Origin: Escherichia phage GEP001
Sequence record: PV173775
Strand: one strand, 5' to 3'
DNA length: 64,000 bases
Below the pieces are notes generated by a model. That model was not told where the DNA came from and did no database searches. It saw nothing but the letters and a program-made list of their open reading frames with translations. Shown piece by piece: positions 4,016 through 64,000 of the stretch. Each line of letters begins with the position of its first letter. Positions within the stretch are counted from its first letter, which is position 1. Both the position numbers and the translations under genes were made by a program.

Positions 4016-4267
4016 ATGGAAACTTTAGTAGCAGGTTCAATTTTTATGGTTTTAGTTTCAGGCGTGTTGGCTATTATTATATACATGCTTCCATGGTTCA
4101 TCGCCTTGATGCGTGGGTCAAAATCGACAGTAGGAATCTTTTTCACATCTTTACTGTTTAACTGGTCAATTATTGGTTGGTTTATTACATTTATTTGGTC
4201 AATTGCGGGTGAAACTAAAAAATCTGCACAGCAAAACCAAGTAATTATCATCAGAGAGAAGGAATGA
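4016..4267 (+). CDS. imm: Imm superinfection immunity membrane protein
   Basis: 83 aa, two hydrophobic segments, position between 43 and 42 as in T4. Confidence 0.8.
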   Translation: METLVAGSIFMVLVSGVLAIIIYMLPWFIALMRGSKSTVGIFFTSLLFNWSIIGWFITFIWSIAGETKKSAQQNQVIIIREKE

Positions 4268-4420: not shown

Positions 4421-5161
4421 ATGATTAATGACTCTATGACAGTTGAAGAAATCCGTCTTCATTTGGGAATTGCATTAAAGGAAAAAGATTTCGTAATTGA
4501 TAAAACCGGTGTTAAAACTATTGAAATTATTGGTGCATCATTTGTAGCAGATGAACCTTTTATTTTTGGCGCTCTTAATGATGAATACATTCAGCGTGAA
4601 CTTGAATGGTATAAGTCTCAAAGTTTGTTTGTTAAAGATATTCCAGGTGAAACGCCGAAGATTTGGCAGCAGGTAGCATCTTCTAAAGGCGAAATTAACT
4701 CGAATTATGGTTGGGCCATCTGGTCAGAAGATAACTATGCCCAGTATGATATGTGTTTAGCTGAACTTGGTCAAAATCCTGATTCTCGCCGCGGTATCAT
4801 GATTTATACTCGTCCATCCATGCAGTTTGACTACAATAAAGATGGCATGTCAGATTTCATGTGTACGAATACAGTGCAGTACCTGATTCGTGATAAGAAA
4901 GTCAATGCAGTGGTTAACATGCGTTCAAATGACGTGGTCTTCGGATTCCGTAATGATTATGCATGGCAAAAATACGTACTAGATAAATTAGTATCTGATT
5001 TGAATGCAGGTGATTCAACTCGTCAGTATAAAGCAGGTTCCATTATATGGAATGTCGGGAGCCTTCATGTGTATTCCCGTCATTTTTATTTGGTTGACCA
5101 TTGGTGGAAAACTGGCGAAACTCATATTGCGAAAAAAGATTATAACGGTGAGTGGAAATGA
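4421..5161 (+). CDS. 42: dCMP hydroxymethylase gp42
   Basis: 246 aa; sequence recognised as T4 gp42 (thymidylate-synthase fold). Confidence 0.95.
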   Translation: MINDSMTVEEIRLHLGIALKEKDFVIDKTGVKTIEIIGASFVADEPFIFGALNDEYIQRELEWYKSQSLFVKDIPGETPKIWQQVASSKGEINSNYGWAIWSEDNYAQYDMCLAELGQNPDSRRGIMIYTRPSMQFDYNKDGMSDFMCTNTVQYLIRDKKVNAVVNMRSNDVVFGFRNDYAWQKYVLDKLVSDLNAGDSTRQYKAGSIIWNVGSLHVYSRHFYLVDHWWKTGETHIAKKDYNGEWK

Positions 5162-6000
5162 TTCAATTCGTAATTCCAAGCTATCAACGCGTAGGGGCAG
5201 TTTCTGCCCTTGATATGTTTCCGACTGATTATGAACCTCATATTGTAGTACGTGAACACGAAGAAAAAGCTTATTATGACGCTTACGGGTCTAGAGCTAA
5301 AATTATAACTATTCCTGATGATGTTAATGGAATTGCTGGTACTCGTAAAGCAATTACTGATATGTATGCAGGTCAACGAATCTGGATGATTGATGATGAT
5401 ACTACTATTCGTATGAGTTCAATGCGAAAGAAAGATGATCGTCGCTGCGTAGATAAAATTAATCAATTAACCCGTGAACAGTTCTATGAATTGATTCAAT
5501 ACGTGGAAGATGCCATGGATTGCGGGTATTATCATGGTCATGCTCGTTTACCAATTTTTAAAATTACTTCATCTTGGGGTAATTATCGTGAAAATTCATA
5601 TGGATTCACGAATACCTGGTATGATTTAGGAAAACTTACAACAGAACAAATTGGGTATGGAAAAATTGATTTATGCGAAGATATGTATGCATTTCTCAAT
5701 TTAATTAATCAAGGTTATCCGCATTTGGCCTTGTTCAAATATCTGGTTGTATCTGGAAAAGCACAAGCTCCTGGCGGGTGCAGTTCAATTCGTAGTAATT
5801 CTAAACATAATAGAGCGCTTGAGCAAATCAATAGAGAGTTTCCAGAGCAAGCTCGTTGGAAAACTTCTAATATTGAAAAACGAAAATCGTTGGGTGAAGA
5901 AGACGAGCCATTAAAGGTTCTTCGCATGTGTGTTTCGCGCAAAGAAAAGTCAGAAGCATTTCATAAGTTTAATGCTATTCATCCAATAGCAGTTGATTAA
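5158..6000 (+). CDS. putative HMC-DNA glucosyltransferase (GT-A, DxD motif), at the locus where T4 has beta-gt
   Basis: 280 aa from the ATG overlapping the gene 42 stop; WMIDDDTTI DxD motif; not the 351-aa T4 beta-gt; T2/T6 are known to carry a beta-alpha-glucosyltransferase here. Confidence 0.55.
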   Translation: MIQFVIPSYQRVGAVSALDMFPTDYEPHIVVREHEEKAYYDAYGSRAKIITIPDDVNGIAGTRKAITDMYAGQRIWMIDDDTTIRMSSMRKKDDRRCVDKINQLTREQFYELIQYVEDAMDCGYYHGHARLPIFKITSSWGNYRENSYGFTNTWYDLGKLTTEQIGYGKIDLCEDMYAFLNLINQGYPHLALFKYLVVSGKAQAPGGCSSIRSNSKHNRALEQINREFPEQARWKTSNIEKRKSLGEEDEPLKVLRMCVSRKEKSEAFHKFNAIHPIAVD

Positions 6001-7605: not shown

Positions 7606-9033
7606 GTGGTAGAAATTATTCTTTCTCATCTCATATTTGATCAAGCTTATTTTTCAAAAGTTTGGCCATATATGGATTCAGAATATTTTGAAAGTGGTCC
7701 AGCTAAAAATACATTCAAATTAATTAAATCTCATGTCAATGAGTACCATAGCGTTCCATCTATTAATGCGTTAAATGTTGCATTAGAAAATAGTTCATTT
7801 ACTGAAACAGAATATTCTGGTGTAAAAACACTTATTTCGAAACTAACCGATTCTCCAGAAGACCATAGCTGGTTAGTAAAAGAAACAGAAAAATACGTTC
7901 AGCAAAGGGCGATGTTTAATGCTACGTCTAAAATAATTGAAATTCAAACTAATGCTGAGCTTCCTCCGGAAAAACGCAATAAGAAAATGCCAGATGTAGG
8001 TGCTATTCCTGACATCATGCGCCAAGCATTATCAATTTCATTTGATAGTTACGTTGGTCATGATTGGATGGATGACTACGAAGCACGTTGGCTATCTTAT
8101 ATGAATAAAGCTCGTAAGGTTCCATTTAAACTCAAAATTCTAAATAAAATTACTAAAGGCGGAGCTGAAACTGGAACACTGAATGTTTTAATGGCTGGTG
8201 TTAACGTTGGTAAGTCATTAGGTCTGTGTTCATTGGCAGCAGATTATTTGCAGCTCGGACATAATGTTCTTTACATTTCCATGGAAATGGCTGAAGAAGT
8301 CTGTGCTAAACGTATTGATGCTAATATGCTTGATGTTTCTCTTGATGACATTGATGATGGGCATATTTCTTACGCTGAGTATAAAGGAAAAATGGAAAAA
8401 TGGCGTGAGAAATCTACTCTCGGTCGTTTAATCGTTAAACAGTATCCTACTGGTGGAGCAGACGCTAATACATTTCGATCGCTTTTAAACGAATTGAAGC
8501 TCAAGAAGAATTTTGTTCCAACAATCATTATTGTCGACTATCTAGGTATTTGTAAATCTTGCCGCATCAGAGTTTACTCAGAAAATAGTTACACAACTGT
8601 TAAAGCCATCGCAGAAGAATTGCGTGCTCTGGCTGTTGAAACCGAAACTGTTCTTTGGACTGCAGCACAGGTTGGTAAGCAAGCTTGGGATTCTTCTGAT
8701 GTTAACATGAGCGATATTGCAGAATCTGCCGGTCTTCCAGCAACAGCCGATTTTATGCTTGCGGTCATTGAAACTGAGGAGTTAGCAGCTGCTGAACAAC
8801 AACTCATTAAGCAAATCAAATCACGATATGGCGATAAGAATAAATGGAATAAGTTTTTGATGGGTGTTCAAAAAGGAAATCAGAAATGGGTAGAAATTGA
8901 ACAAGATTCTACTCCAACTGAAGTGAACGAAGTGGCAGGTTCACAGCAGATTCAAGCTGAGCAGAATCGCTATCAAAGAAACGAATCCGCTCGAGCTCAG
9001 TTAGATGCTTTGGCAAACGAATTAAAATTTTAG
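7606..9033 (+). CDS. 41: replicative DNA helicase gp41 (DnaB-like)
   Basis: 475 aa; GTG start; Walker A GVNVGKS; sequence recognised as T4 gp41. Confidence 0.95.
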   Translation: MVEIILSHLIFDQAYFSKVWPYMDSEYFESGPAKNTFKLIKSHVNEYHSVPSINALNVALENSSFTETEYSGVKTLISKLTDSPEDHSWLVKETEKYVQQRAMFNATSKIIEIQTNAELPPEKRNKKMPDVGAIPDIMRQALSISFDSYVGHDWMDDYEARWLSYMNKARKVPFKLKILNKITKGGAETGTLNVLMAGVNVGKSLGLCSLAADYLQLGHNVLYISMEMAEEVCAKRIDANMLDVSLDDIDDGHISYAEYKGKMEKWREKSTLGRLIVKQYPTGGADANTFRSLLNELKLKKNFVPTIIIVDYLGICKSCRIRVYSENSYTTVKAIAEELRALAVETETVLWTAAQVGKQAWDSSDVNMSDIAESAGLPATADFMLAVIETEELAAAEQQLIKQIKSRYGDKNKWNKFLMGVQKGNQKWVEIEQDSTPTEVNEVAGSQQIQAEQNRYQRNESARAQLDALANELKF

Positions 9034-9073
9034 TTTACAAGCCGACAAGACTATGGTATAGTAGTCTTGTCGG
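9033..9073 (+). promoter_or_regulatory. early promoter with 11-bp perfect inverted repeat (ccgacaagact / agtcttgtcgg) bracketing the -10
   Basis: GTTTAC 9033-9038, TATAGT 9057-9062, arms 9042-9052 and 9063-9073. Confidence 0.55.
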
Positions 9074-9091
9074 TTAAATGAGGAGATTTTT

Positions 9092-9274
9092 ATGGAATTG
9101 GTAAAGGTAGTTTTTATGGGGTGGTTTAAGAATGAAAGCATGTTTACTAAAGAAATCACAATGATGAAAGATGACGTTCAATGGGCTACTACTCAATATG
9201 CTGAAGTTAATAAAGCGCTAGTTAAAGCTTTCATTGATGACAAGAAAGTATGCGAAGTGGATTGCCGAGGATAA
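9092..9274 (+). CDS. dmd: Dmd antitoxin (inhibitor of RnlA/LsoA RNase toxins)
   Basis: 60 aa; MELVKVVFMGWFKNESMFTKEITMMKDDVQWATTQYAEVNKALVKAFIDDKKVCEVDCRG recognised as T4 Dmd (61.5). Confidence 0.8.
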   Translation: MELVKVVFMGWFKNESMFTKEITMMKDDVQWATTQYAEVNKALVKAFIDDKKVCEVDCRG

Positions 9275-9275
9275 T

Positions 9276-9533
9276 ATGCATATTGTTTTATTTAAACCTA
9301 CTCCGTATAACGTCAGGAAAAATACTCAATTCAAAGCACTTATCGCAGATACGTGGGAATTGGTATTAGATATTCCAGCAGAAGAAAGCCCTCCATTTGG
9401 TCGAGTGGAATTTATTAAGTTTGCTGTGCGCCCTACAAAGCGGCAGATTCGCCAATGCAAAAGATACTTTCGTAAAATCGTCAAGTTAGAGAAACAGTTT
9501 GTAACATGTGATTATACAGAAGTTTTAAAATAG
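9276..9533 (+). CDS. hypothetical protein (basic, 85 aa)
   Basis: ATG preceded by GAGGA RBS immediately after dmd stop; the track ORF start at 9234 overlaps dmd. Confidence 0.55.
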   Translation: MHIVLFKPTPYNVRKNTQFKALIADTWELVLDIPAEESPPFGRVEFIKFAVRPTKRQIRQCKRYFRKIVKLEKQFVTCDYTEVLK

Positions 9534-9535
9534 TA

Positions 9536-9578
9536 GTTTACAAGCTGATAGAGTTGTGTTATAGTAATTCTATCAGCT
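9536..9578 (+). promoter_or_regulatory. early promoter with 10-bp perfect inverted repeat (agctgataga / tctatcagct) bracketing the -10
   Basis: GTTTAC 9536-9541, TATAGT 9560-9565, arms 9543-9552 and 9569-9578. Confidence 0.55.
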
Positions 9579-9596
9579 AATCGCGGAGAAAAGAAA

Positions 9597-9851
9597 ATGA
9601 TGCTAGTTAATAGAGAATATCAGTTTAAATCAGAAGAAGATTTGGAAAAATTCGCGAGCGGTTGTGAACTGAATAGACGCACAGCTAAAGTCATAGGATT
9701 AAAACCCTTTACAGTTCTAGATTGTGAAGTTTCTAAATTCCGCAGAGGGTGTTCTATTAGCGGTCATGCTCTGGTTGATGGGAACACATTTTTCTTTGTT
9801 TTTAGCGTCAGAGAACTTTTATTGATTAACGAACTTGAGGAAATAAAATAG
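9597..9851 (+). CDS. hypothetical protein (84 aa)
   Basis: ORF with RBS-like gcggagaaaag upstream. Confidence 0.5.
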   Translation: MMLVNREYQFKSEEDLEKFASGCELNRRTAKVIGLKPFTVLDCEVSKFRRGCSISGHALVDGNTFFFVFSVRELLLINELEEIK

Positions 9852-9879
9852 TTTACTTTTGTTTTAAACATGTTATTAT
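9851..9879 (+). promoter_or_regulatory. early promoter (GTTTAC, 17 bp, TATTAT)
   Basis: gtttacttttgttttaaacatgttattat. Confidence 0.5.
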
Positions 9880-9903
9880 AGACCTATCAAAACAAACGAG
9901 TAA

Positions 9904-10095
9904 ATGGAGAATAAAATGTCTAAAGTATCAGGTTATCAATTATTAACACAAGAACAACGTTCAGAGATGGATTCTTTACAAGAACGGTGTCAGCATAGAA
10001 ATAACGCACTTGATTCATTTTTATTAGTTGAATATGAAAACTTGTGCTCTAGACTTGAAAAAGAATATGTTCATCAACATGGAGGAGAAGAATGA
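9904..10095 (+). CDS. hypothetical protein (63 aa; alternative start at 9916)
   Basis: Two in-frame ATGs; GGAG RBS favours the ATG at 9916. Confidence 0.5.
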   Translation: MENKMSKVSGYQLLTQEQRSEMDSLQERCQHRNNALDSFLLVEYENLCSRLEKEYVHQHGGEE

Positions 10096-10142
10096 AACTG
10101 AAATCACCAATTATTGTAATTTGTCTGTTTGCTTCTACTAGT

Positions 10143-10171
10143 GTTTACTTTTGTTGAAAATTGAGATACTA
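10143..10171 (+). promoter_or_regulatory. early promoter (GTTTAC, 17 bp, TACTAT)
   Basis: gtttacttttgttgaaaattgagatactat. Confidence 0.5.
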
Positions 10172-10198
10172 TAAACATAAACTACTGAGGAGATTATC

Positions 10199-10492
10199 AT
10201 GAAAAAATTTATCTTTGCTGCAATTTTTGCTTTATCTTCTTGCGCTGCTCAGCCTGCTATGGCGGGTTATGACAAAGATTTGTGTGAGTGGTCTATGACT
10301 GCAGATCAGACTGAGGTTGAAACTCAGATTGAAGCCGATATTATGAATATCGTTGAGCGTGATCGTCCTGAAATGAAAGCTGAAGTGCAAAAACAACTTA
10401 AGTCTGGTGGTGTAATGCAGTATAATTATGTTCTGTATTGCGATAAAAACTTTAATAATAAAAATATCGTAACCGAAATCACAGGCGAATAA
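10199..10492 (+). CDS. sp: Spackle periplasmic protein (superinfection exclusion, lysozyme inhibitor)
   Basis: 97 aa with N-terminal signal peptide MKKFIFAAIFALSSCAAQPAMA; recognised as T4 Sp. Confidence 0.75.
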   Translation: MKKFIFAAIFALSSCAAQPAMAGYDKDLCEWSMTADQTEVETQIEADIMNIVERDRPEMKAEVQKQLKSGGVMQYNYVLYCDKNFNNKNIVTEITGE

Positions 10493-10493
10493 T

Positions 10494-11126
10494 ATGATTT
10501 ATTATATGCACAAAAATCCACCGTTTAAATATGGTAAATTTCCTGATGCACAATGTTATAATATAACACCTAATGAAAATAACCGTGGATATCTTATTGG
10601 CACAATTTTTGTAATTGTTAAAGATAACGAAATCGTTGCCTGGGCAGATTTTAAAGGTACAACATATGATGTTAATCCGGTGCCTTTCACATATTACAAT
10701 TTAATGGATTTGGCATACGATTATAATTGGTTTAATCATGATACTTTGGCTCATATTGAAGGTGTAGGATTTGATATTTCATATTCGGAATACACTTTAA
10801 GCCCTATGAGTCGAGCCCATAAAGAACCTGAATATTTTTCATTTAGGAAACGTGTAAACTTTAAACGCAGCACAGAGTATATCGGTGGAATCTTTGTTAA
10901 AGATAATCGAATTATTCGTATTAATTATCCTTTGAGCGTTAGTCAAAAAGATATTGATGTTGATTTAGATTTCACTGAAAATAATATTAATAATATTGCT
11001 TCTGTGTATTTTGGTATCGATCACAAAATTGTAATATGTGGATATGAATTACCGTTTGAAGAACAGCCTAAAGTAAAAGTTTCTATTGACGATCAAATTT
11101 TTAATGCTTTTATGAATAAAGGTTAA
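10494..11126 (+). CDS. hypothetical protein (210 aa) with two internal VKDN-type repeats
   Basis: C-terminus SIDDQIFNAFMNKG is shared with the next ORF. Confidence 0.6.
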   Translation: MIYYMHKNPPFKYGKFPDAQCYNITPNENNRGYLIGTIFVIVKDNEIVAWADFKGTTYDVNPVPFTYYNLMDLAYDYNWFNHDTLAHIEGVGFDISYSEYTLSPMSRAHKEPEYFSFRKRVNFKRSTEYIGGIFVKDNRIIRINYPLSVSQKDIDVDLDFTENNINNIASVYFGIDHKIVICGYELPFEEQPKVKVSIDDQIFNAFMNKG

Positions 11127-11127
11127 T

Positions 11128-11484
11128 ATGTATAGTTCTGAATTTTCATATTTAAAAATGGAAAAAATTTCATACGATTTTATAGATGAAAAGGTTTATT
11201 ACAGTTTCCATGAACCGCGTTTTAATAGTGAGGTTGGGTTTATTGTAGTAAAAGACAATTTCATTTTAAAGATATATTCGGCATTAAAGGATTTTCACTA
11301 CGAAAATATTAACCTAAAATTTGATAAAGAAAACGTTCGTAATTGTGCAGTAACAATTACAGGAAATAAAGGTACATGTGTTATGCTATCTGATGAAATT
11401 AATGATTTGCTAAATGATGTAGAAAAGGTTGCTGTTCCATCGATTGATGACCAAATTTTTAATGCTTTTATGAATAGAGGTTAA
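11128..11484 (+). CDS. hypothetical protein (118 aa), paralog of the preceding ORF
   Basis: Shares the VKDN repeat and C-terminus SIDDQIFNAFMNRG. Confidence 0.6.
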   Translation: MYSSEFSYLKMEKISYDFIDEKVYYSFHEPRFNSEVGFIVVKDNFILKIYSALKDFHYENINLKFDKENVRNCAVTITGNKGTCVMLSDEINDLLNDVEKVAVPSIDDQIFNAFMNRG

Positions 11485-11485
11485 T

Positions 11486-11650
11486 ATGAAAACATATAAA
11501 GAATTTATCAAAGAAGATATGGTAGCTGGAGATTCGGGTGGTAATCCTGAAAATATCTCTACTGGAACAACGTCAGGCGCTGTAGTAAATAAAGGCCCTG
11601 AACAGATTCCTAAAAAGAAAAAAGAGGAATCTAAAGAAAAAGAAGAGTAA
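11486..11650 (+). CDS. small hypothetical protein (54 aa, lysine/glutamate-rich C-terminus)
   Basis: ATG overlaps the preceding stop (TAATATG); below track cutoff. Confidence 0.35.
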   Translation: MKTYKEFIKEDMVAGDSGGNPENISTGTTSGAVVNKGPEQIPKKKKEESKEKEE

Positions 11651-11652
11651 AA

Positions 11653-12681
11653 ATGTCATCAATACCTTGGATTGATAATGAGTTTGCATATCGTGCATTA
11701 GCTCATTTACCTAAATTTACACAAGTAAATAATAGTTCAACTTTTAAATTGCGGTTTAGATGCCCTGTTTGTGGAGATTCAAAAACCGACCAAAATAAAG
11801 CTCGTGGATGGTATTATGGCGATAATAATGAAGGAAATATTCATTGTTATAACTGTAACTATCATGCACCAATCGGAATATATTTAAAGGAGTTTGAACC
11901 CGATTTATATCGTGAGTATATCTTTGAAATAAGAAAAGAAAAAGGTAAAAGTCGTCCAGTAGAAAAACCTAAAGAACTTCCTAAACAACCTGAGAAGAAA
12001 ATAATTAAATCTCTTCCGTCATGTGTTAGATTAGATAAACTGGCGGAAGACCATCCAATTATAAAATATGTAAAAGCTCGCTGTATTCCAAAGGATAAAT
12101 GGAAATATCTTTGGTTTACATCTGAATGGCCTAAATTAGTTAATAGTATAGCACCAGGAACATATAAAAAGGAAATACCTGAGCCTCGTCTTGTTATTCC
12201 AATTTATAATGCTAATGGAAAAGCTGAGTCTTTTCAAGGACGTGCATTAAAGAAAGATGCTCCTCAAAAATATATCACCATCAAAGCTTATCCTGAGGCA
12301 ACAAAAATCTATGGTGTTGAACGAGTTAAAGATGGTGATGTATATGTTCTAGAAGGACCTATAGATTCACTTTTTATTGAAAATGGTATAGCTATTACAG
12401 GTGGTCAATTAGACCTAGAAATTGTTCCATTTAAAGATAGACGAGTATGGGTTTTGGATAATGAACCTCGTCATCCTGATACTATTAAACGAATGACTAA
12501 ATTAGTTGACGCAGGAGAAAGGATTATGTTTTGGGACAAATCTCCATGGAAATCAAAAGATGTTAATGATATGATTAGAAAGGAAGGTGCAACCCCTGAA
12601 CAAATTATGGAATATATGAAAAATAATATTGCGCAGGGGTTGATGGCTAAAATGCGGCTATCTAAATATGCTAAGATTTAA
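11653..12681 (+). CDS. 61: DNA primase gp61
   Basis: 342 aa; zinc ribbon CPVCGDS...HCYNCNYH; TOPRIM motif VLEGPIDSLF; recognised as T4 gp61. Confidence 0.95.
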   Translation: MSSIPWIDNEFAYRALAHLPKFTQVNNSSTFKLRFRCPVCGDSKTDQNKARGWYYGDNNEGNIHCYNCNYHAPIGIYLKEFEPDLYREYIFEIRKEKGKSRPVEKPKELPKQPEKKIIKSLPSCVRLDKLAEDHPIIKYVKARCIPKDKWKYLWFTSEWPKLVNSIAPGTYKKEIPEPRLVIPIYNANGKAESFQGRALKKDAPQKYITIKAYPEATKIYGVERVKDGDVYVLEGPIDSLFIENGIAITGGQLDLEIVPFKDRRVWVLDNEPRHPDTIKRMTKLVDAGERIMFWDKSPWKSKDVNDMIRKEGATPEQIMEYMKNNIAQGLMAKMRLSKYAKI

Positions 12682-12982: not shown

Positions 12983-14322
<1,340 letters not shown>

Positions 14323-22903: not shown

Positions 22904-23446
22904 ATGAAATTTAATTATAATCCTGAATACATACCAAATCCGGTAGCTAAACTGATTGATTTTGATGTTGTAAGCACTTATGTATGCCCTGTTAAACCAC
23001 TGGAAATTAAGGAATCTACTATGACTACCGCTATTGAAATCGGCAAAACCTACAAACTAGTTGAACCTGAAATTAAAACCAATGCCTTGATTTCCGGCTA
23101 TAAAACTTTGACTGGTGTTTTTGGCGAAGGCGAATTTACTGTTGAAGACTTTGAAAAAAGTAAATGGTTTACTAAATCTTATATTGTCCACGGTCGTCGT
23201 TTAGACAATAACAAAATAGAGAAAATCCTGGTTTATGAAGCAGAGTTCATCCTGTTCCAAGAAGTTGAAGAACAAGACCCTACAGACCTTCTAACTCGTG
23301 CGGTAGCTATCAAGACCCCATTTGTTTCGGTCTGTGGTTGGGTAACAGACCAGTGGATTGAAGATGGTGTTGAACTTCTGAACGTTGTTCATGCAGGTGA
23401 TTTTAGCGTAGTACCTCGTAGTACGGTGGTAGCTATTTTGAATTAA
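22904..23446 (+). CDS. hypothetical protein (180 aa) sharing a C-terminal domain with MotB
   Basis: C-terminal CGWVTDQWIEDGVELLNVVHAGDFSVVPRS resembles the next ORF. Confidence 0.6.
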   Translation: MKFNYNPEYIPNPVAKLIDFDVVSTYVCPVKPLEIKESTMTTAIEIGKTYKLVEPEIKTNALISGYKTLTGVFGEGEFTVEDFEKSKWFTKSYIVHGRRLDNNKIEKILVYEAEFILFQEVEEQDPTDLLTRAVAIKTPFVSVCGWVTDQWIEDGVELLNVVHAGDFSVVPRSTVVAILN

Positions 23447-24400: not shown

Positions 24401-24616
24401 ATGAAACGTAAAATTGTTCAGAACTGCACTAATGACGAATTTGAAGATGTATTATTTGATCCAGATTTGGTAGTGGTTCAAAAGGAACATACCGTTAAGT
24501 TTACTCACTTGACTTCGGTTTATGTGTATGAAAAGGTTGGTGATAAACAGCCGATTTACGGTGTATTCCGTGAAATTACTGAAGATGGCACAACTTACTG
24601 GAAGGAAATTTATTAA
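24401..24616 (+). CDS. hypothetical protein (71 aa; Cef-like by size and position)
   Basis: Same length as T4 Cef; sequence not recognised. Confidence 0.35.
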
Positions 24617-25035
24617 TGGCTATTAAATTTGAAGTTAATAAATGGTATCAATTTAAAAATAAACAAGCTCAAGAAAATTTTATTAAAGACCATACTGATA
24701 ACGGAATCTATGCACGACGTTTAGGTATGGAACCTTTTAAAATTTTAGATGTTGACTATTACGGGCGTCCTACTAAAATTGTGACATCTACTGGCACAAT
24801 TGGATATTCAACATGTGGTACAGTCATTGACGAAAACTTTATCTGGCTCTCTACTAACGAAGCTGAGTTCTTTGATGAAGTTGAAAATCCATACCAGGCT
24901 GCTGAAGAACAAGAGCAGGAAGAGCAAGAACAAATAGAAGATTTCACAGAATTCCCGGTAATGAAAGTTACTATTGAAAATAATGAACAGGCATGGTCTT
25001 TGTATCAGATGTTGAAAGCACATTTTAAGGAATAA
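24616..25035 (+). CDS. hypothetical protein (139 aa; GoF-like by position; acidic [10 protein letters not shown] tract)
   Basis: Track ORF. Confidence 0.35.
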
Positions 25036-25216: not shown

Positions 25217-25588
25217 ATGTTTAAAATTGGTAAGAAATATCGTGTTCGCGAAGGTGAAGAAAAGAAATATCTACTTTCTTCTATTTATAGGAATGGTTCT
25301 ATTAATGCCGTAATATCTACAAGCGAATTTATCGTTGAAGATATGAAAGGCCATAATGTTACAATGATTAGTACAGCATCTGGAAATGATGGAAAAATTC
25401 TTCACAGTTTTCAGAGTAATGTTCTAATTTATGATGAAGAATTTGACTTCTTCGAAGAAGTTCCTGAAGATTTTGATTTTGAATGCACCATCACTATGAA
25501 ATCTGGTGACCCTCTTTCATTTACGGTTAAAGATGAAAGAAGTCGCTTGAGAATTATTAGTCTCCTTCAAGCCATTAAATTTGAGTGA
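25217..25588 (+). CDS. hypothetical protein (123 aa)
   Basis: Track ORF. Confidence 0.5.
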   Translation: MFKIGKKYRVREGEEKKYLLSSIYRNGSINAVISTSEFIVEDMKGHNVTMISTASGNDGKILHSFQSNVLIYDEEFDFFEEVPEDFDFECTITMKSGDPLSFTVKDERSRLRIISLLQAIKFE

Positions 25589-25922: not shown

Positions 25923-27740
25923 ATGATTAAGAATGAAATTAAAATTCTGAGCGATATTGAACATATCAAAAAGCGTAGCGGCATGTACATTGGTTCTTCT
26001 GCTAATGAAATGCATGAGCGCTTTCTGTTTGGTAAATGGGAAAGTGTTCAGTATGTACCTGGTCTTGTTAAGCTTATTGATGAAATTATCGATAACTCAG
26101 TAGATGAAGGTATTCGTACTAAGTTTAAATTCGCAAATAAAATTAATGTTACCATTAAAAATAATCAGGTAACAGTTGAAGATAACGGTCGTGGTATTCC
26201 ACAAGCGATGGTTAAAACACCTACCGGTGAAGAAATTCCTGGTCCTGTTGCTGCCTGGACTATTCCAAAAGCAGGTGGTAACTTTGGTGATGATAAAGAA
26301 CGCGTCACCGGTGGTATGAATGGTGTTGGTTCTAGTTTAACTAACATTTTTTCTGTGATGTTTGTCGGTGAAACTGGCGATGGTCAAAATAATATTGTTG
26401 TTCGTTGTTCAAATGGCATGGAAAATAAATCATGGGAAACTATTCCTGGAAAATGGAAAGGAACTCGCGTTACTTTCATTCCTGATTTTATGTCATTTGA
26501 AACTAATGAGCTATCTCAAGTTTATCTTGACATTACGTTAGATCGTCTCCAGACACTTGCAGTAGTTTATCCTGATATTCAATTTACCTTTAATGGTAAA
26601 AAGGTTCAGGGTAATTTTAAGAAATATGCACGCCAATATGATGAACACGCCATCGTTCAAGAACAAGAAAACTGTTCTATTGCGGTTGGTCGTTCACCGG
26701 ACGGTTTTCGTCAATTAACGTACGTCAATAACATTCATACTAAGAATGGTGGCCATCACATTGACTGCGTTATGGATGATATTTGTGAAGACCTTATTCC
26801 ACAAATCAAACGTAAGTTCAAAATTGATGTAACTAAAGCACGTGTTAAAGAATGTTTGACTATCGTTATGTTTGTTCGTGATATGAAAAACACGCGATTT
26901 GACTCTCAAACTAAAGAGCGTCTGACTTCTCCATTTGGTGAAATCCGTAGTCATATTCAGCTTGATGCTAAAAAGATTTCACGTGCTATTTTAAATAATG
27001 AAGCAATTTTAATGCCAATTATTGAAGCTGCCTTGGCTCGTAAATTGGCGGCAGAAAAAGCAGCAGAAACTAAAGCAGCTAAAAAGGCTTCTAAAGCTAA
27101 GGTTCATAAACATATTAAAGCGAATCTTTGTGGTAAAGATGCTGACACTACTCTTTTCTTGACTGAGGGTGATTCTGCTATCGGATATCTTATTGATGTT
27201 CGTGATAAAGAACTTCATGGCGGTTATCCATTGCGTGGTAAAGTTCTCAACAGTTGGGGTATGTCATATGCTGATATGCTTAAAAACAAAGAACTGTTTG
27301 ATATTTGCGCAATCACTGGATTAGTTCTTGGTGAAAAAGCCGAAAACTTGAATTATCATAATATTGCTATTATGACCGATGCTGACCATGATGGTCTAGG
27401 AAGCATTTATCCTTCTTTGCTCGGATTTTTTAGTAATTGGCCAGAACTGTTTGAACAAGGAAGAATTCGCTTTGTCAAAACTCCTGTAATCATCGCTCAG
27501 GTCGGTAAAAAACAAGAATGGTTTTATACAGTCGCTGAATATGAGAGTGCTAAAGATGCTCTACCTAAACATAGCATCCGTTATATTAAGGGACTTGGCT
27601 CTTTGGAAAAATCTGAATATCGTGAGATGATTCAAAATCCAGTATATGATGTTGTTAAACTTCCTGAGAATTGGAAAGAGCTTTTTGAAATGCTCATGGG
27701 AGATAATGCTGACCTTCGTAAAGAATGGATGAGCCAGTAG
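25923..27740 (+). CDS. 39: DNA topoisomerase II large subunit gp39 (ATPase, GyrB-like), 39 and 60 in one ORF
   Basis: 605 aa; GHKL ATPase and TOPRIM motifs; single ORF with no split or bypass element, as in T2/T6. Confidence 0.9.
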   Translation: MIKNEIKILSDIEHIKKRSGMYIGSSANEMHERFLFGKWESVQYVPGLVKLIDEIIDNSVDEGIRTKFKFANKINVTIKNNQVTVEDNGRGIPQAMVKTPTGEEIPGPVAAWTIPKAGGNFGDDKERVTGGMNGVGSSLTNIFSVMFVGETGDGQNNIVVRCSNGMENKSWETIPGKWKGTRVTFIPDFMSFETNELSQVYLDITLDRLQTLAVVYPDIQFTFNGKKVQGNFKKYARQYDEHAIVQEQENCSIAVGRSPDGFRQLTYVNNIHTKNGGHHIDCVMDDICEDLIPQIKRKFKIDVTKARVKECLTIVMFVRDMKNTRFDSQTKERLTSPFGEIRSHIQLDAKKISRAILNNEAILMPIIEAALARKLAAEKAAETKAAKKASKAKVHKHIKANLCGKDADTTLFLTEGDSAIGYLIDVRDKELHGGYPLRGKVLNSWGMSYADMLKNKELFDICAITGLVLGEKAENLNYHNIAIMTDADHDGLGSIYPSLLGFFSNWPELFEQGRIRFVKTPVIIAQVGKKQEWFYTVAEYESAKDALPKHSIRYIKGLGSLEKSEYREMIQNPVYDVVKLPENWKELFEMLMGDNADLRKEWMSQ

Positions 27741-27769
27741 TTTACTTTACCACAAGGATGTGGTATAAT
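27740..27769 (+). promoter_or_regulatory. early promoter (GTTTAC, 18 bp, TATAAT)
   Basis: gtttactttaccacaaggatgtggtataat. Confidence 0.65.
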
Positions 27770-27794
27770 TAATTAGGCAAATGAGGATATTGAA

Positions 27795-27998
27795 ATGAAA
27801 TCATATAAAGTAAATTTAGAACTTTTTGATAAAGCAGTTCATCGAGAATATAGAATCATTCAACGCTTTTTCGATATGGGAGAAGCCGAAGAGTTTAAAA
27901 ACCGCTTTAAGAATATTAGAGATAAAATTCAATCCGACACCGCAACTAAAGATGAACTACTAGAAGTTGCCGAAGTTATTAAACGCAATATGAATTAA
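27795..27998 (+). CDS. hypothetical protein (67 aa, rIIA.1-like position)
   Basis: Track ORF. Confidence 0.5.
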
Positions 27999-33505: not shown

Positions 33506-33961
33506 ATGAAATACATGACTGTTACTGATCTGAATAATGCAGGCGCAACTGTTATTGGTACAATCAAGGGCGGTGAATGGGTTTTTGGAACTCCACATAA
33601 AGACATTTTGTCTAACCCTGGATTTTACTTTTTAGTGAGTAAATTTGGTGGTCCATTTGATAGTCCGTGTGTATCTGCGCGATTTTATGTAGGTAATCAG
33701 CGTTCTAAGCAAGGATTCAGCGCAGTTCTAAGTCATATTCGTCAGCGTCGGTCTCAGCTTGCGCGTACTATTGCAAATAACAATGTTCCATACACAGTAT
33801 TTTATCTACCTGCTTCTAAGATGAAACCTCTGACGACAGGATTTGGAAAGGGTCAGTTAGCTTTAGCGTTTACTCGTAATCATCATTCTGAGTATCAAAC
33901 ACTTGAAGAAATGAACCGTATGTTGGCTGATAACTTTAAATTTGTTTTGCAGGCATATTAA
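33506..33961 (+). CDS. ndd: Ndd nucleoid disruption protein
   Basis: 151 aa from internal Met; [25 protein letters not shown]... recognised as T4 Ndd. Confidence 0.85.
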
Positions 33962-34038
33962 TGAGTAATTTCCATAATGAACATGTGATGCAGTTCTATC
34001 GTAACAATCTTAAAACTAAAGGCATCTTCGGACGCTAG
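33961..34038 (+). CDS. stp: Stp peptide (modulator of host EcoprrI/PrrC)
   Basis: 25 codons, [25 protein letters not shown]; ATG overlaps ndd stop; recognised as T4 Stp. Confidence 0.75.
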
Positions 34039-36547: not shown

Positions 36548-36877
36548 ATGAACAAGTTAGAAATTATCAATGAACTTCGTCGTTGTGCAGAACCTACTCA
36601 AGAGGGATGGGGCATCTGGTACCACGGGGCTTATCTTGGAACTATCGTAAAGATTAAGACCGGTAAATACATGATTATTCGTGAAAGTAAAGATGCTCCA
36701 GTAGGTATTCGCAATAATTTTATGGCAGCGATAAGTTCATTTACGGATGCAGCTTACGAAATTTACCTTGCTGATTATAAAGAATTCCAGGAATCTCAAC
36801 CAGTTATTCGCTCAATTGGTGTTAACAAAGCTCAACAGAAAACTTTGTGGCAGCGTATTAAAGGATGGTTTAAATGA
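36548..36877 (+). CDS. hypothetical protein (109 aa)
   Basis: Track ORF. Confidence 0.5.
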
Positions 36878-37335
36878 ATCCATTTATTAATCGTTTAAAA
36901 ATGCTGAATGTTCCTTTATCTCGTGAAACTCCAGAAAGTCTTGTTCAAAAATTTAAAGCACATGGTTATAAATGCACAGAAGAAGATATTCTTGCAGAAG
37001 TTCCGGAAATTTGTTGGCAAACCGCATACTGGGATGAAAACCAAAAGTACCAACGACGGATTGTTTGCGCAGCCAACCGTTTTAAATTAAAAGATGGACG
37101 AACTCTTGTTATTCCAGGTGCTCGTCATTATTCTAAAGATATGGCAGCAGTTTTAGATGTAGTTAAACCCCAATTAGTTACTCAGCAAGTTTGTGATGAT
37201 GACCAAGGGTTTATTGACCAATATAGTAATTATTGGACACGTGAAGAAGCAATGATTATTGCAACTTACGCTGGACAAGTACGTATTGAACGCGGCGGTA
37301 GTGAAAAAGAACTTTACTCTGAGGACCTTTACTAA
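36874..37335 (+). CDS. hypothetical protein (153 aa)
   Basis: Track ORF. Confidence 0.5.
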
Positions 37336-37403
37336 TGAATATTAAAAAGTTTCAAATTGATGGAATTACTAATCAAATCCAGGCGTTGTAATATGCCAAT
37401 AAA

Positions 37404-37631
37404 ATGATGTCAACTAATTGGGGAATTTATGCTAATGAACCTGCATTTCAGTTTTGTGATATGGAATTAACTAAAAAGCTCGTAGGAAAAGATTATGTAT
37501 GTCCATTTAGTTCCCCAATAAATGGAATGTTAAAACCTGCTTTACGCGATCTTTATATTGCGATGAACGAAGAGATGATAAAAGAGCTAAAACGTCAACT
37601 GAAGGTGATTCAATTTGGCCAGGGAAATTAA
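37404..37631 (+). CDS. hypothetical protein (75 aa)
   Basis: Track ORF. Confidence 0.45.
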   Translation: MMSTNWGIYANEPAFQFCDMELTKKLVGKDYVCPFSSPINGMLKPALRDLYIAMNEEMIKELKRQLKVIQFGQGN

Positions 37632-37833
37632 TTCAAAATCCGATTATTTTAACTCTCTCAATGATAAAGATAAAAATCTAATACGGCACTTTATCGTTGA
37701 GATGGGATATACTGACACACGTGATTTAAGAGAACATATATTTGAATGTGGTGTAGCTAAAAAGTTTTCATTCACATGCAAATGTTTAAGAGAGGTGATT
37801 CAGCACTATGAACAATTTAGTCGCAAAACATAA
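37615..37833 (+). CDS. hypothetical protein (72 aa)
   Basis: Track ORF. Confidence 0.45.
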   Translation: MAREINSKSDYFNSLNDKDKNLIRHFIVEMGYTDTRDLREHIFECGVAKKFSFTCKCLREVIQHYEQFSRKT

Positions 37834-37916: not shown

Positions 37917-38195
37917 ATGATTATTGATTCTCAATCTGTGGTTCAATATACAATCAAAATTGATATTCTAGAAAAGCTATATAAGTTTCTACCAAATTTA
38001 TACCACTCAATTGTTAATGAATTAGTTGAAGAACTACATCTTGAGAATAATGATTTCTTGGTTGGAACTTATAAAGACCTCTCAAAAGCAGGATATTTTT
38101 ACGTAATTCCAGCTCCAGGAAAAAGTATTGATGATGTATTAAAAACTATAATGATTTACGTCCATGATTACGAAATTGAAGATTATTTCGAATGA
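37917..38195 (+). CDS. Arn-like protein (candidate anti-McrBC), by size and position
   Basis: 92 aa, acidic; T4 Arn is 92 aa and sits near asiA; sequence not recognised. Confidence 0.35.
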   Translation: MIIDSQSVVQYTIKIDILEKLYKFLPNLYHSIVNELVEELHLENNDFLVGTYKDLSKAGYFYVIPAPGKSIDDVLKTIMIYVHDYEIEDYFE

Positions 38196-39316: not shown

Positions 39317-40105
39317 TTATACTCTTGGACCATATATTGCTCCAACGTTTTGCCATGTCGGTGTAGACCCTATGACGGCATAACCAGCAGCACCGCCATC
39401 GTATTCATATCCTTGACCACGAATATTACATCTACCTCCTGCGGAGCCAACTTCACCACCAGACCCGCCGCTATAGATACCGTTCACAGACCCTGCGCCA
39501 GGCGCAGAAATAGTACCAGCAGTTGCTCCTGATTGCATATCAATAGATCCGCCGGGCGCGCCAAACGGACGACCGCCGCCACCGCCAAAGGTCAATCTCA
39601 TTTGTGAAAAAGGAGAATAATATCCGCCGCCACCGCCGCCGCCGCCGCCAGCAATAGCTCCGCCATTATTAATTCTTAGTCTCCCACCAATATCATTTTG
39701 AATACAATGACCCCCAGCTGAGCCAGGACTATTGCTACCGCCATTCCCGCCACGGCCATACATCGTTACACCATGTATATTCAGTTGAACATATTCATTC
39801 GGTGTATCTCCGTACATGAAGAATAAAGGAACATCTTTAGAATATGATACTAAATCTCCAGTGATATTAAACACTATAGGTGCACTACCTGCCTCAAAAC
39901 ATCTATCTCGGAACCATTGGCCATTGAAGTTATGGTCTGCTCCAAGCGTGTGAATTATTTCAACAGATCGACCTATCATATTACTCATCCAGAACGGAAT
40001 GCCCATTCTTAATCGTTGGGCCGCGCCACCCATCCAATTTTGTCCTGTATTAACTACTGCAGACGATCCTACCCACGGTCCTGTTACTGCCATATAAACC
40101 TCCAA
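39317..40105 (-). CDS. 38: gp38 receptor-recognising adhesin (T2-type, glycine-rich motifs)
   Basis: 262 aa; GGGGGGGGG and GGxGG tracts; T4 gp38 is shorter and lacks these, T2/T6-type is about 260 aa. Confidence 0.8.
39625..39651 (-). repeat. (GGC/GCC)n simple repeat encoding the poly-Gly tract of gp38
   Basis: ccgccgccaccgccgccgccgccgcca on the plus strand. Confidence 0.8.
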
Positions 40106-52745: not shown

Positions 52746-53111
52746 ATGTATATCGGTAAAAAGTATGAACTTGTTCCAAGACTTATTGATACATTTATTA
52801 ATTATCGTCCACGTTCTAATTCAGCAATAGTTAAAATTATTCAAGAAAATGGCGGATGGTTTGAAGTTAAAGAAGCTTTCTTTGTTGATGGATTTAGAGT
52901 AATAAAACACATTGAATGCGCAAATGGAAAGCATTTTTACTTTAACGTTTGCGAAGACGAATTTCATTGTTTTCGTGAGTATAAAGAACCGACTTTTGAA
53001 GAAGATGAAGTCGAAGACAAGGTTTCTGGCGTAACAAAAATTCACTGCATTGTAGATGAAAACAATGTAGACGAAATCATTGAACTTTTGCGAAAAACTT
53101 TCAAAAAGTAG
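52746..53111 (+). CDS. hypothetical protein (121 aa)
   Basis: Track ORF. Confidence 0.5.
   Translation: MYIGKKYELVPRLIDTFINYRPRSNSAIVKIIQENGGWFEVKEAFFVDGFRVIKHIECANGKHFYFNVCEDEFHCFREYKEPTFEEDEVEDKVSGVTKIHCIVDENNVDEIIELLRKTFKK

Positions 53112-59946: not shown

Positions 59947-61534
<1,588 letters not shown>

Positions 61535-62965: not shown

Positions 62966-62969
<4 letters not shown>
62733..62969 (+). CDS. hypothetical protein (78 aa)
   Basis: Track ORF. Confidence 0.5.

Positions 62970-64000
<1,031 letters not shown>

Follow-up and report, generated by a model that had tools for sequence, protein, structure and literature searches.

The 64,000-nt stretch of the Escherichia phage GEP001 genome analysed here (sequence record PV173775; this whole stretch is referred to below as the window) carries, between the replication genes 41 and 61, a string of small genes that includes dmd, tifA, sp and adfA. 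In all probability, this segment is the published anti-toxin–antitoxin (anti-TA) island, made up of early modules that are fronted by promoters and have received cassette insertions. Three open reading frames (ORFs) of the interval, designated ORF-A, ORF-B and ORF-C, have no counterpart in T4. The genes and sequence elements of the interval are as follows.

7606–9033 (+): gene 41, replicative helicase, 99.4% identical to T4 gp41; conserved upstream boundary of the island
9034–9075 (+): early-type promoter TTTACA-17-TG-TATAGT (9034–9062) with a 15-bp hairpin (9040–9075) before dmd, similar to a promoter-early stem-loop (PeSL)
9092–9274 (+): dmd, predicted antitoxin-like inhibitor of the RnlA/LsoA RNase toxins; T4 identity, PF17587
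9276–9533 (+): tifA (gp61.4), RNA-binding ToxN inhibitor, 97.6% identical to T4 gp61.4 (tblastn)
9537–9578 (+): second early-type promoter (9537–9565) with a 14-bp hairpin (9543–9578), after tifA
9597–9851 (+): ORF-A, 84 aa, PHROG 2980 (annotated goF), E 3.2e-20; no T4 counterpart
9851–9879 (+): promoter-like sequence, the left GTTTACTTTTGTT direct-repeat copy (family D4) bounding the ORF-B cassette
9916–10095 (+): ORF-B, 59 aa, acidic, PHROG 37915 (mechanical ORF start at 9904); no T4 counterpart
10143–10200 (+): right copy of the GTTTAC... repeat with promoter-like sites before sp; right junction of both insertions
10199–10492 (+): sp (Spackle), periplasmic protein that inhibits the gp5 lysozyme of superinfecting phage; T4 identity, PF25676
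10494–11126 (+): adfA (gp61.2), anti-DarT factor A, PF23813, E 1.7e-138
11128–11484 (+): ORF-C, 118 aa, short AdfA paralog; no T4 counterpart, present in T2
11486–11650 (+): gene 61.1, the sole ORF found in all 44 loci with a delimited gp41–gp61 gap (see below)
11653–12681 (+): gene 61, primase, 98.2% identical to T4 gp61; conserved downstream boundary of the island

The window belongs to a Tequatrovirus (T4-like) genome. Its region 8500–11000 shares 99.6% identity with Escherichia phage ECO07P2 and has matches in 665 phage records, nearly all of them from Tequatrovirus. Of 102 T4 proteins, 87 were found in the window by tblastn, and their genes keep the T4 order, which starts with imm.1, continues with gene 41, the rII genes and those of the tail fibres, and ends with pseT. 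What is the plus strand here is the minus strand in the T4 reference.

The clustering of dmd and sp had been noticed in the original prediction, which was made from the DNA sequence alone, and it stands: the two genes are 1.1 kb apart and both lie within the gene 41-to-61 interval. T4 Dmd aligns at 9092–9271 with 100% identity and T4 Sp at 10199–10489 with 92.8% identity (tblastn), and Pfam searches gave the same assignments independently (Dmd, PF17587, E 1.6e-46; T4_Spackle, PF25676, E 7.6e-46). Dmd is a protein of roughly 60 aa encoded just downstream of gene 41; judging from its identity to the T4 protein, it should bind and inhibit RnlA and LsoA. The genes interleaved with dmd and sp are real ORFs, each with a Shine–Dalgarno sequence and a PHROG family. 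The description of the ORFs at 9276–10095 as uncharacterised holds for ORF-A and ORF-B but not for the ORF at 9276–9533, which is the published ToxN inhibitor TifA. This protein matches DUF7279 (PF23945; E 2.2e-20, 72.8 bits), adjoins dmd and is basic (isoelectric point 9.83, charge +7.6), with a central basic cluster. TifA alone suffices against ToxIN defence, and T4 escapes plasmid-borne toxIN through amplification of the dmd-tifA segment, which is under an early promoter, with another promoter downstream of tifA (Srikant et al., 2022; PMC9391042). In the mechanism reported for TifA, RNA and ToxN are bound in an inhibited ribonucleoprotein complex (PMC10853763).

The genes named for this cluster were correct, but adfA, which adjoins sp, had been missed. 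Its product is 72% identical to T4 gp61.2 and matches PF23813 over its full length (459 bits). Spackle has a putative export signal, a MKKFIFAAIFALSSCAAQPAMA leader resembling a signal peptide that can be seen by eye at the N terminus. Its listing, together with Imm, as a counter-defence protein did not hold up, as both are well established as superinfection-exclusion proteins aimed at other phage.

The three genes dmd, tifA and adfA are found less than 2 kb from each other, with variable cargo between conserved flanks. By a rough estimate, the chance of three validated anti-TA genes falling within ~2 kb of 64 kb is 3 x (2/64)^2, or ~0.003. We fetched 45 loci with a gp41 anchor from IMG/VR and could delimit the gp41–gp61 gap in 43 of them and in the window, giving 44 loci. 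The length of the gap varies between 417 and 5836 nt, and it contains 1–12 ORFs, which fall into 41 BLAST-distinct families. Besides gp61.1 (44 loci), 39 loci encode Sp, 25 encode TifA (some of them twice), 16 a member of the AdfA family and 15 Dmd. Pfam searches with ten families of cargo from other phages yielded nothing but domains of unknown function. With this variability, the locus has the character of an island of accessory genes. This speaks for guilt by association as a general argument, and for no particular ORF.

The interval shares with the dmd-tifA-sp-adfA island of T4 its position between genes 41 and 61, its gene order and the early promoters before dmd and after tifA. It differs in having an additional 600 nt between tifA and sp and 358 nt after adfA, and in an AdfA that is 72% identical. 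The segment would then represent the proximal half of the T4-type hyperplastic region that lies between the two replication genes, organized as a string of early-transcribed modules, each with a T4 early promoter in front and two of the promoters overlapping strong hairpins. In the first module, dmd-tifA, Dmd is expected to neutralise the RnlA and LsoA RNases by binding them and TifA to trap ToxN in an inactive ribonucleoprotein complex. In the last one, sp-adfA-ORF-C-61.1-61, exported Spackle would block the tail lysozyme of superinfecting phage and AdfA would bind DarT. The cassettes with ORF-A and ORF-B were probably gained or lost through recombination between the repeated promoter sequences. 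The gene identities, junctions, hairpins and cargo variability come from this analysis and the functions of Dmd, TifA, AdfA and Sp from the literature.

Promoters, hairpins and insertion junctions

The hairpin at 9040–9075 has a predicted free energy of -23.9 kcal/mol (z -7.2), with none of 200 shuffled sequences as stable, and the one at 9543–9578 reaches -18.0 kcal/mol (z -4.5), again with no shuffled sequence as stable. The promoters that they overlap are part of a 65-nt direct repeat, with one copy in the 9034 region and the other at 9525–9589. A terminator scan found no T-tract terminators. Neither Rfam nor tRNA scans gave any match in the whole window, so the DNA between the ORFs contains no known RNA gene.

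Pairwise alignment was used to map the insertion junctions. Relative to T4, the window has a 600-nt insertion (9542–10141) that carries ORF-A and ORF-B, and both of its junctions fall in GTTTAC -35 boxes with a 7-nt overlap; the left one is the -35 box of the 9537–9565 promoter. Relative to phage P8, there is a 279-nt insertion with ORF-B, bounded by the 13-nt repeat GTTTACTTTTGTT. A third insertion, of 358 nt, is seen relative to both T4 and P8; it contains ORF-C and has at its borders a 49-nt repeat coding for the C-terminal tail shared by AdfA and ORF-C.

In T4-type hyperplastic regions, ORFans are shuffled as PeSL cassettes (PMC2839356; PMC4122927). The arrangement in the window resembles PeSLs (Arbiol et al., 2010; Comeau et al., 2014) in that a repeated early promoter with a stable stem-loop, present in two copies, flanks ORFans and the indel junctions lie within the repeated motif. 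Unlike PeSLs, the hairpins of the window overlap the promoter, their stems are not of the GGGG...CCCC type and only two of the four promoter copies have a hairpin, all of these features being predicted from sequence. Indeed, the T-even elements have been described as analogs, not homologs, of the RB49-type PeSLs (Arbiol et al., 2010).

Genes of the inserted cassettes

ORF-A aligns with the N-terminal domain of the GoF protein encoded in the same window (28% identity, E 3e-8, BLASTP), and this GoF likewise matches PHROG 2980, which places ORF-A in the GoF family by sequence. Residues C23, C43, C52 and H57 are kept in its close relatives and in a homolog from Gaprivervirus. ORF-A is present in 83 phage records, and the Gaprivervirus phage vB_EcoM_RZ has a 56%-identical homolog in its own 41–61 interval, directly after gene 41. 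A deep search of 5.8 billion proteins gave five close relatives, and a profile search, run on 1.84 billion representatives, found a single true cluster, along with spurious matches to multiple stretches of long proteins. ORF-A shares the N-terminal domain of GoF and the PHROGs with the LSm-like GoF/Frd.2/MotB.1 family of Tevenvirinae (Kim et al., 2025; PMC12152347). Unlike GoF, it has no C-terminal domain and is found in the 41–61 island rather than near gene 39, and its conserved Cys3-His set is missing from GoF and Frd.2. Counting ORF-A, no fewer than five proteins of the GoF/Frd.2/MotB.1 group are encoded in the window, the others being found at 22904–23446, 24616–25035, 25217–25588 and 52746–53111. 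Among the members of the group is a 180-aa ORF that takes the place of T4 motB.1. There is also a 123-aa member of PHROG 622, not found in T4, between 39.2 and 39.1.

The likely start codon of ORF-B is the ATG at 9916, with a GGAG sequence 7 nt before it. This ORF occurs in 20 phage records, always just downstream of ORF-A and at no less than 95% identity, and formed a single cluster among 5.8 billion proteins, which makes it an orphan. AlphaFold2 predicted a single long alpha-helix covering residues 12–55, with a predicted local distance difference test (pLDDT) score of 88.8. ORF-B (charge -5.2) and ORF-C (-6.3) are the most acidic of the interleaved ORFs. Structure prediction had been suggested as a way to reveal DNA-mimic or inhibitor folds among these ORFs and turned up nothing diagnostic: ORF-B gave the single helix and ORF-A a low-confidence model with generic fold matches. 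A DNA-mimic fold was rejected for the interleaved ORFs, since none of them is as acidic as Arn (-9.2) and ORF-B is predicted to be a plain helix. PDB sequence searches with ORF-A, ORF-B and the product of arn.3 (see below) returned nothing or weak zinc-finger noise (E > 0.2), and no small ORF scored above the NCBIfam cut-offs.

ORF-C resembles the C-terminal half of AdfA (BLASTP E 1e-11) and scores 34.4 bits against PF23813, above the 27-bit Pfam cut-off, with a match to the C-terminal half of the family only. Compared with AdfA (LeRoux et al., 2022), of which the product of 10494–11126 is a full-length family member, ORF-C is half as long and has the same DDQIFNAFM tail. It is present in 332 phage records, among them T2, a phage that has been described as lacking adfA (LeRoux et al., 2022). 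In one of the IMG/VR loci, L027, ORF-C stands in the place of AdfA, whereas in the window the two coexist. The tail [IV]DDQIFNAFM[NK]R[GD] is invariant in all 20 members of the AdfA/ORF-C family, and a related tail, DD[QE]IFN[AF][FW]M, also ends four other BLAST-distinct families (F10, F21, F24 and F38). Within the 13-kb loci it is encoded only in the gene 41–61 gap, mostly in the slot after sp; in the window, its positions are 11088–11126 (adfA) and 11446–11484 (ORF-C). Outside the tail, AdfA and ORF-C are 35% identical. The 14 tail codons of the two genes differ by three synonymous changes and one conservative change, which, given the divergence of the rest of the proteins, argues for selection acting at the peptide level and not for a recent gene conversion. 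The tail may serve as a common functional handle to which diversified N-terminal parts are attached.

The AdfA of the window has Asn at codon 167, the position equivalent to R164 of RB69, where T4 has His and the RB69-like locus L029 has Arg (position 164 being numbered from MHKN in the L029 protein). His at this position confers neutralisation of DarT1 and the Arg of RB69 is non-neutralising (LeRoux et al., 2022). The Asn, which differs from the neutralising His, represents a third allele and also occurs in locus L007. The DarT specificity of AdfA in this phage is therefore not to be assumed.

Possible functions of the accessory genes

Proposing anti-defence roles for the uncharacterised neighbours of known inhibitors was reasonable, but not new: Srikant, Guegler and Laub (2022, eLife, PMC9391042) described the gene 41-to-61 region as a possible 'anti-TA island', in which the remaining genes were 'attractive anti-toxin candidates'. 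ORF-A might be a small-protein inhibitor of some other abortive-infection toxin of the host, a role that we regard as doubtful; ORF-B could act in the same manner, which is just as tentative. The prospects are slightly better for ORF-C as a binder of a DarT-family protein, given its relation to AdfA, though this too is a guarded suggestion. The combined proposal, that at least one of the three ORFs encodes a new small-protein inhibitor of an abortive-infection or TA toxin of the host and that the slot after sp holds a wider AdfA-like superfamily in which the tail is the handle and the N termini provide toxin specificity, seems to us possible and on the unlikely side.

Several points weigh against seeing the segment as an anti-TA island with inhibitors among its cargo. 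The promoter calls are consensus matches only, and no significant hairpin accompanies the two promoter-like sites on either side of ORF-B. PHROG, Pfam, PDB and NCBIfam searches found no homology of ORF-A or ORF-B to characterised inhibitors; no LSm or SH3 fold, a bent antiparallel beta-sheet of five strands, was among the generic fold matches of the low-confidence ORF-A model, and the GoF relatives of this protein are suspected RNA-stability factors, not toxin inhibitors (PMC12152347). The conservation of ORF-B says little because it has almost no homologs. As for AdfA, the T4 adfA deletion has no DarTG1 phenotype (LeRoux et al., 2022), and the allele in the window carries Asn, not the neutralising His, at the key position.

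ORF-A and ORF-B might instead be accessory genes of host takeover or RNA metabolism, with ORF-A being, for example, an LSm-type RNA chaperone that tunes the stability of phage mRNA, and be found here only because the hyperplastic region is permissive for recombination. We take this to be a serious alternative, if short of an even chance. ORF-A belongs to the GoF/Frd.2/MotB.1 group, whose one reported phenotype is altered stability of gene 41 mRNA and whose knock-outs have no growth defect (PMC12152347); further paralogs of the group are encoded elsewhere in the window (24616–25035, 25217–25588 and 52746–53111), and hyperplastic regions are known to gather ORFans of every kind (PMC2839356; PMC4122927). 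However, three neighbouring genes are validated toxin inhibitors, the ORF-A subfamily is kept in this island in two genera, and Dmd and TifA are themselves directed against RNases, so that an RNA-linked protein could still serve in counter-defence. ORF-B could even be no functional gene at all, just a chance frame in the DNA between two promoter copies. It is only 59 aa long, forms one cluster among 5.8 billion proteins, belongs to a single PHROG, and its purifying selection is unmeasurable because all 20 copies are at least 95% identical. We nevertheless regard this as improbable, since the frame is intact in 20 of the 20 records and always directly follows ORF-A, the GGAG sequence and a promoter-like site precede it, its helix is confidently predicted, and the region contains no Rfam RNA.

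Competition between phages could also be the main business of the cluster, with the extra ORFs encoding further superinfection-exclusion factors. Both Sp and Imm act in exclusion, and among the genes of the gap only 61.1 is more widespread than sp, but ORF-A, ORF-B and ORF-C, unlike Sp and Imm, have no signal peptide or membrane segment, the targets of Dmd, TifA and AdfA are host toxins, and imm itself is outside the island, 5 kb away; this makes such an explanation very unlikely. The alternatives for the accessory ORFs are inseparable in silico, the homology, PDB and fold searches having yielded nothing diagnostic.

Counter-defence genes and other features elsewhere in the window

Further genes with known or proposed roles in counter-defence or exclusion had been reported outside the interval and were all found where the original prediction had placed them:

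4016–4267 (+): imm, superinfection immunity membrane protein; T4 identity, PF14373
33961–34038 (+): stp, 25-aa peptide, 24 of 25 residues as in T4 Stp
36548–36877 (+): arn.4 (109-aa long form), T4 ortholog
36874–37335 (+): arn.3, T4 ortholog
37335–37631 (+): arn.2, T4 ortholog with an ochre codon at position 19
37702–37833 (+): arn.1 (the ORF extends to 37615), T4 ortholog
37917–38195 (+): arn, DNA-mimic inhibitor of McrBC; T4 identity, PF22134
60410–61534 (+): rnlA (gene 63), RNA ligase 1, with the KxDG motif present as TKEDGS
63268–64000 (+): pseT, polynucleotide kinase/phosphatase, cut by the end of the window

The T4 proteins aligned by tblastn at 4016–4264 (Imm, 97.6% identity), 37917–38192 (Arn, 96.7%), 33961–34035 (Stp, 25 aa here vs 26 aa in T4) and 60410–61531 (RnlA, 98.4%), and from 63268 to the end of the window (PseT, 81% over 245 aa). 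Pfam independently assigned Imm to Imm_superinfect (PF14373) and Arn to DM_Arn (PF22134, E 9.7e-54). Stp, an anti-restriction peptide, is also a trigger of PrrC. Arn is acidic, with an isoelectric point of 4.55 and a charge of -9.2. The motifs of the tRNA repair pair (Rnl1 and Pnkp) are present: the translation of pseT contains the P-loop GCPGSGKST and, as FDLDGT, the DxDGT motif, with the C-terminal 56 residues falling outside the window. PseT, at 81% identity to T4, is far more diverged than its neighbours (98–100%), and a 100-aa ORF (62966–63268, +; PHROG 2364) separates pseT.1 from pseT, two genes that have no gap between them in T4.

The products of arn.1 to arn.4 are 94–100% identical to those of T4 (tblastn) and have no Pfam or NCBIfam family. 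In T2, arn.1-4 and arn form one middle transcript, and a counter-defence role has been called 'conceivable' (bioRxiv preprint, June 2026); an anti-defence function of arn.1-4 in the window is likewise a possibility. In arn.2, a GAA to TAA change makes codon 19 an ochre stop (37389–37391), while the rest of the gene is intact, including the 3' end at which ArcZ pairs in T2 (bioRxiv preprint, 2026). Over this stretch, no phage record out of 484 reaches 100% identity, and the mutant 25-mer has no exact match in IMG/VR, as against five for the sense version. A shared polymorphism was therefore rejected, and the ochre codon appears to be private to this genome or a sequencing error.

A 186-aa ORF without T4 counterpart (12983–13543, +; PHROG 8706) abuts dam (13543–14322). 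It has an invariant D72...E85-x-K87 motif, and four of its six homologs match DpnII (best E 8.3e-5), BanI and other PD-(D/E)xK families weakly, below the Pfam cut-offs. The ORF occurs in 163 phage records including T2. It is always located directly before a Dam-type methylase gene, in the window, in metagenome contigs and in Klebsiella phage KPV15, where the pair has a different genome position, next to rIIB/denB. With this constant pairing, it behaves as part of a mobile nuclease–methylase pair, and together with dam it may possibly form a phage-borne GATC restriction-modification-like module. No published report of this pair was found in the literature searched.

The T4 beta-glucosyltransferase and segA are absent, and in their stead there is a 282-aa ORF (5152–6000, +) of the beta-glucosyl-hydroxymethylcytosine-alpha-glucosyltransferase type (PHROG 842, E 1.9e-89, and a weak Pfam TAGT match). 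A gentiobiosyl DNA modification in the style of T2 and T6 is therefore predicted, and such a modification itself bears on restriction evasion. The T4 mobile elements mobA, 60.1, segA, segG, mobE and I-TevI were not found in the window (25923–27795 and the td/nrdB regions), and neither was T4 gp38; a glycine-rich ORF next to t (39317–40105, -) probably encodes a T2-type gp38 adhesin. With respect to mobile elements and gp38, the backbone is T2/T6-like rather than T4-like.

As a whole, the observation behind the original prediction was correct and its interpretation is partly supported. The named genes and the concept of the island were already known, from textbooks or recent publications, so their confirmation adds little, and the interpretation is not new. 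What is useful is the cargo list of ORF-A, ORF-B and ORF-C, the Asn allele of AdfA and the shared tail, at a locus where three out of three small genes tested have turned out to encode toxin inhibitors. Any candidate that does inhibit a defence system would add to the catalogue of anti-TA factors and help to account for the differences in host range among therapeutic T4-like phages.

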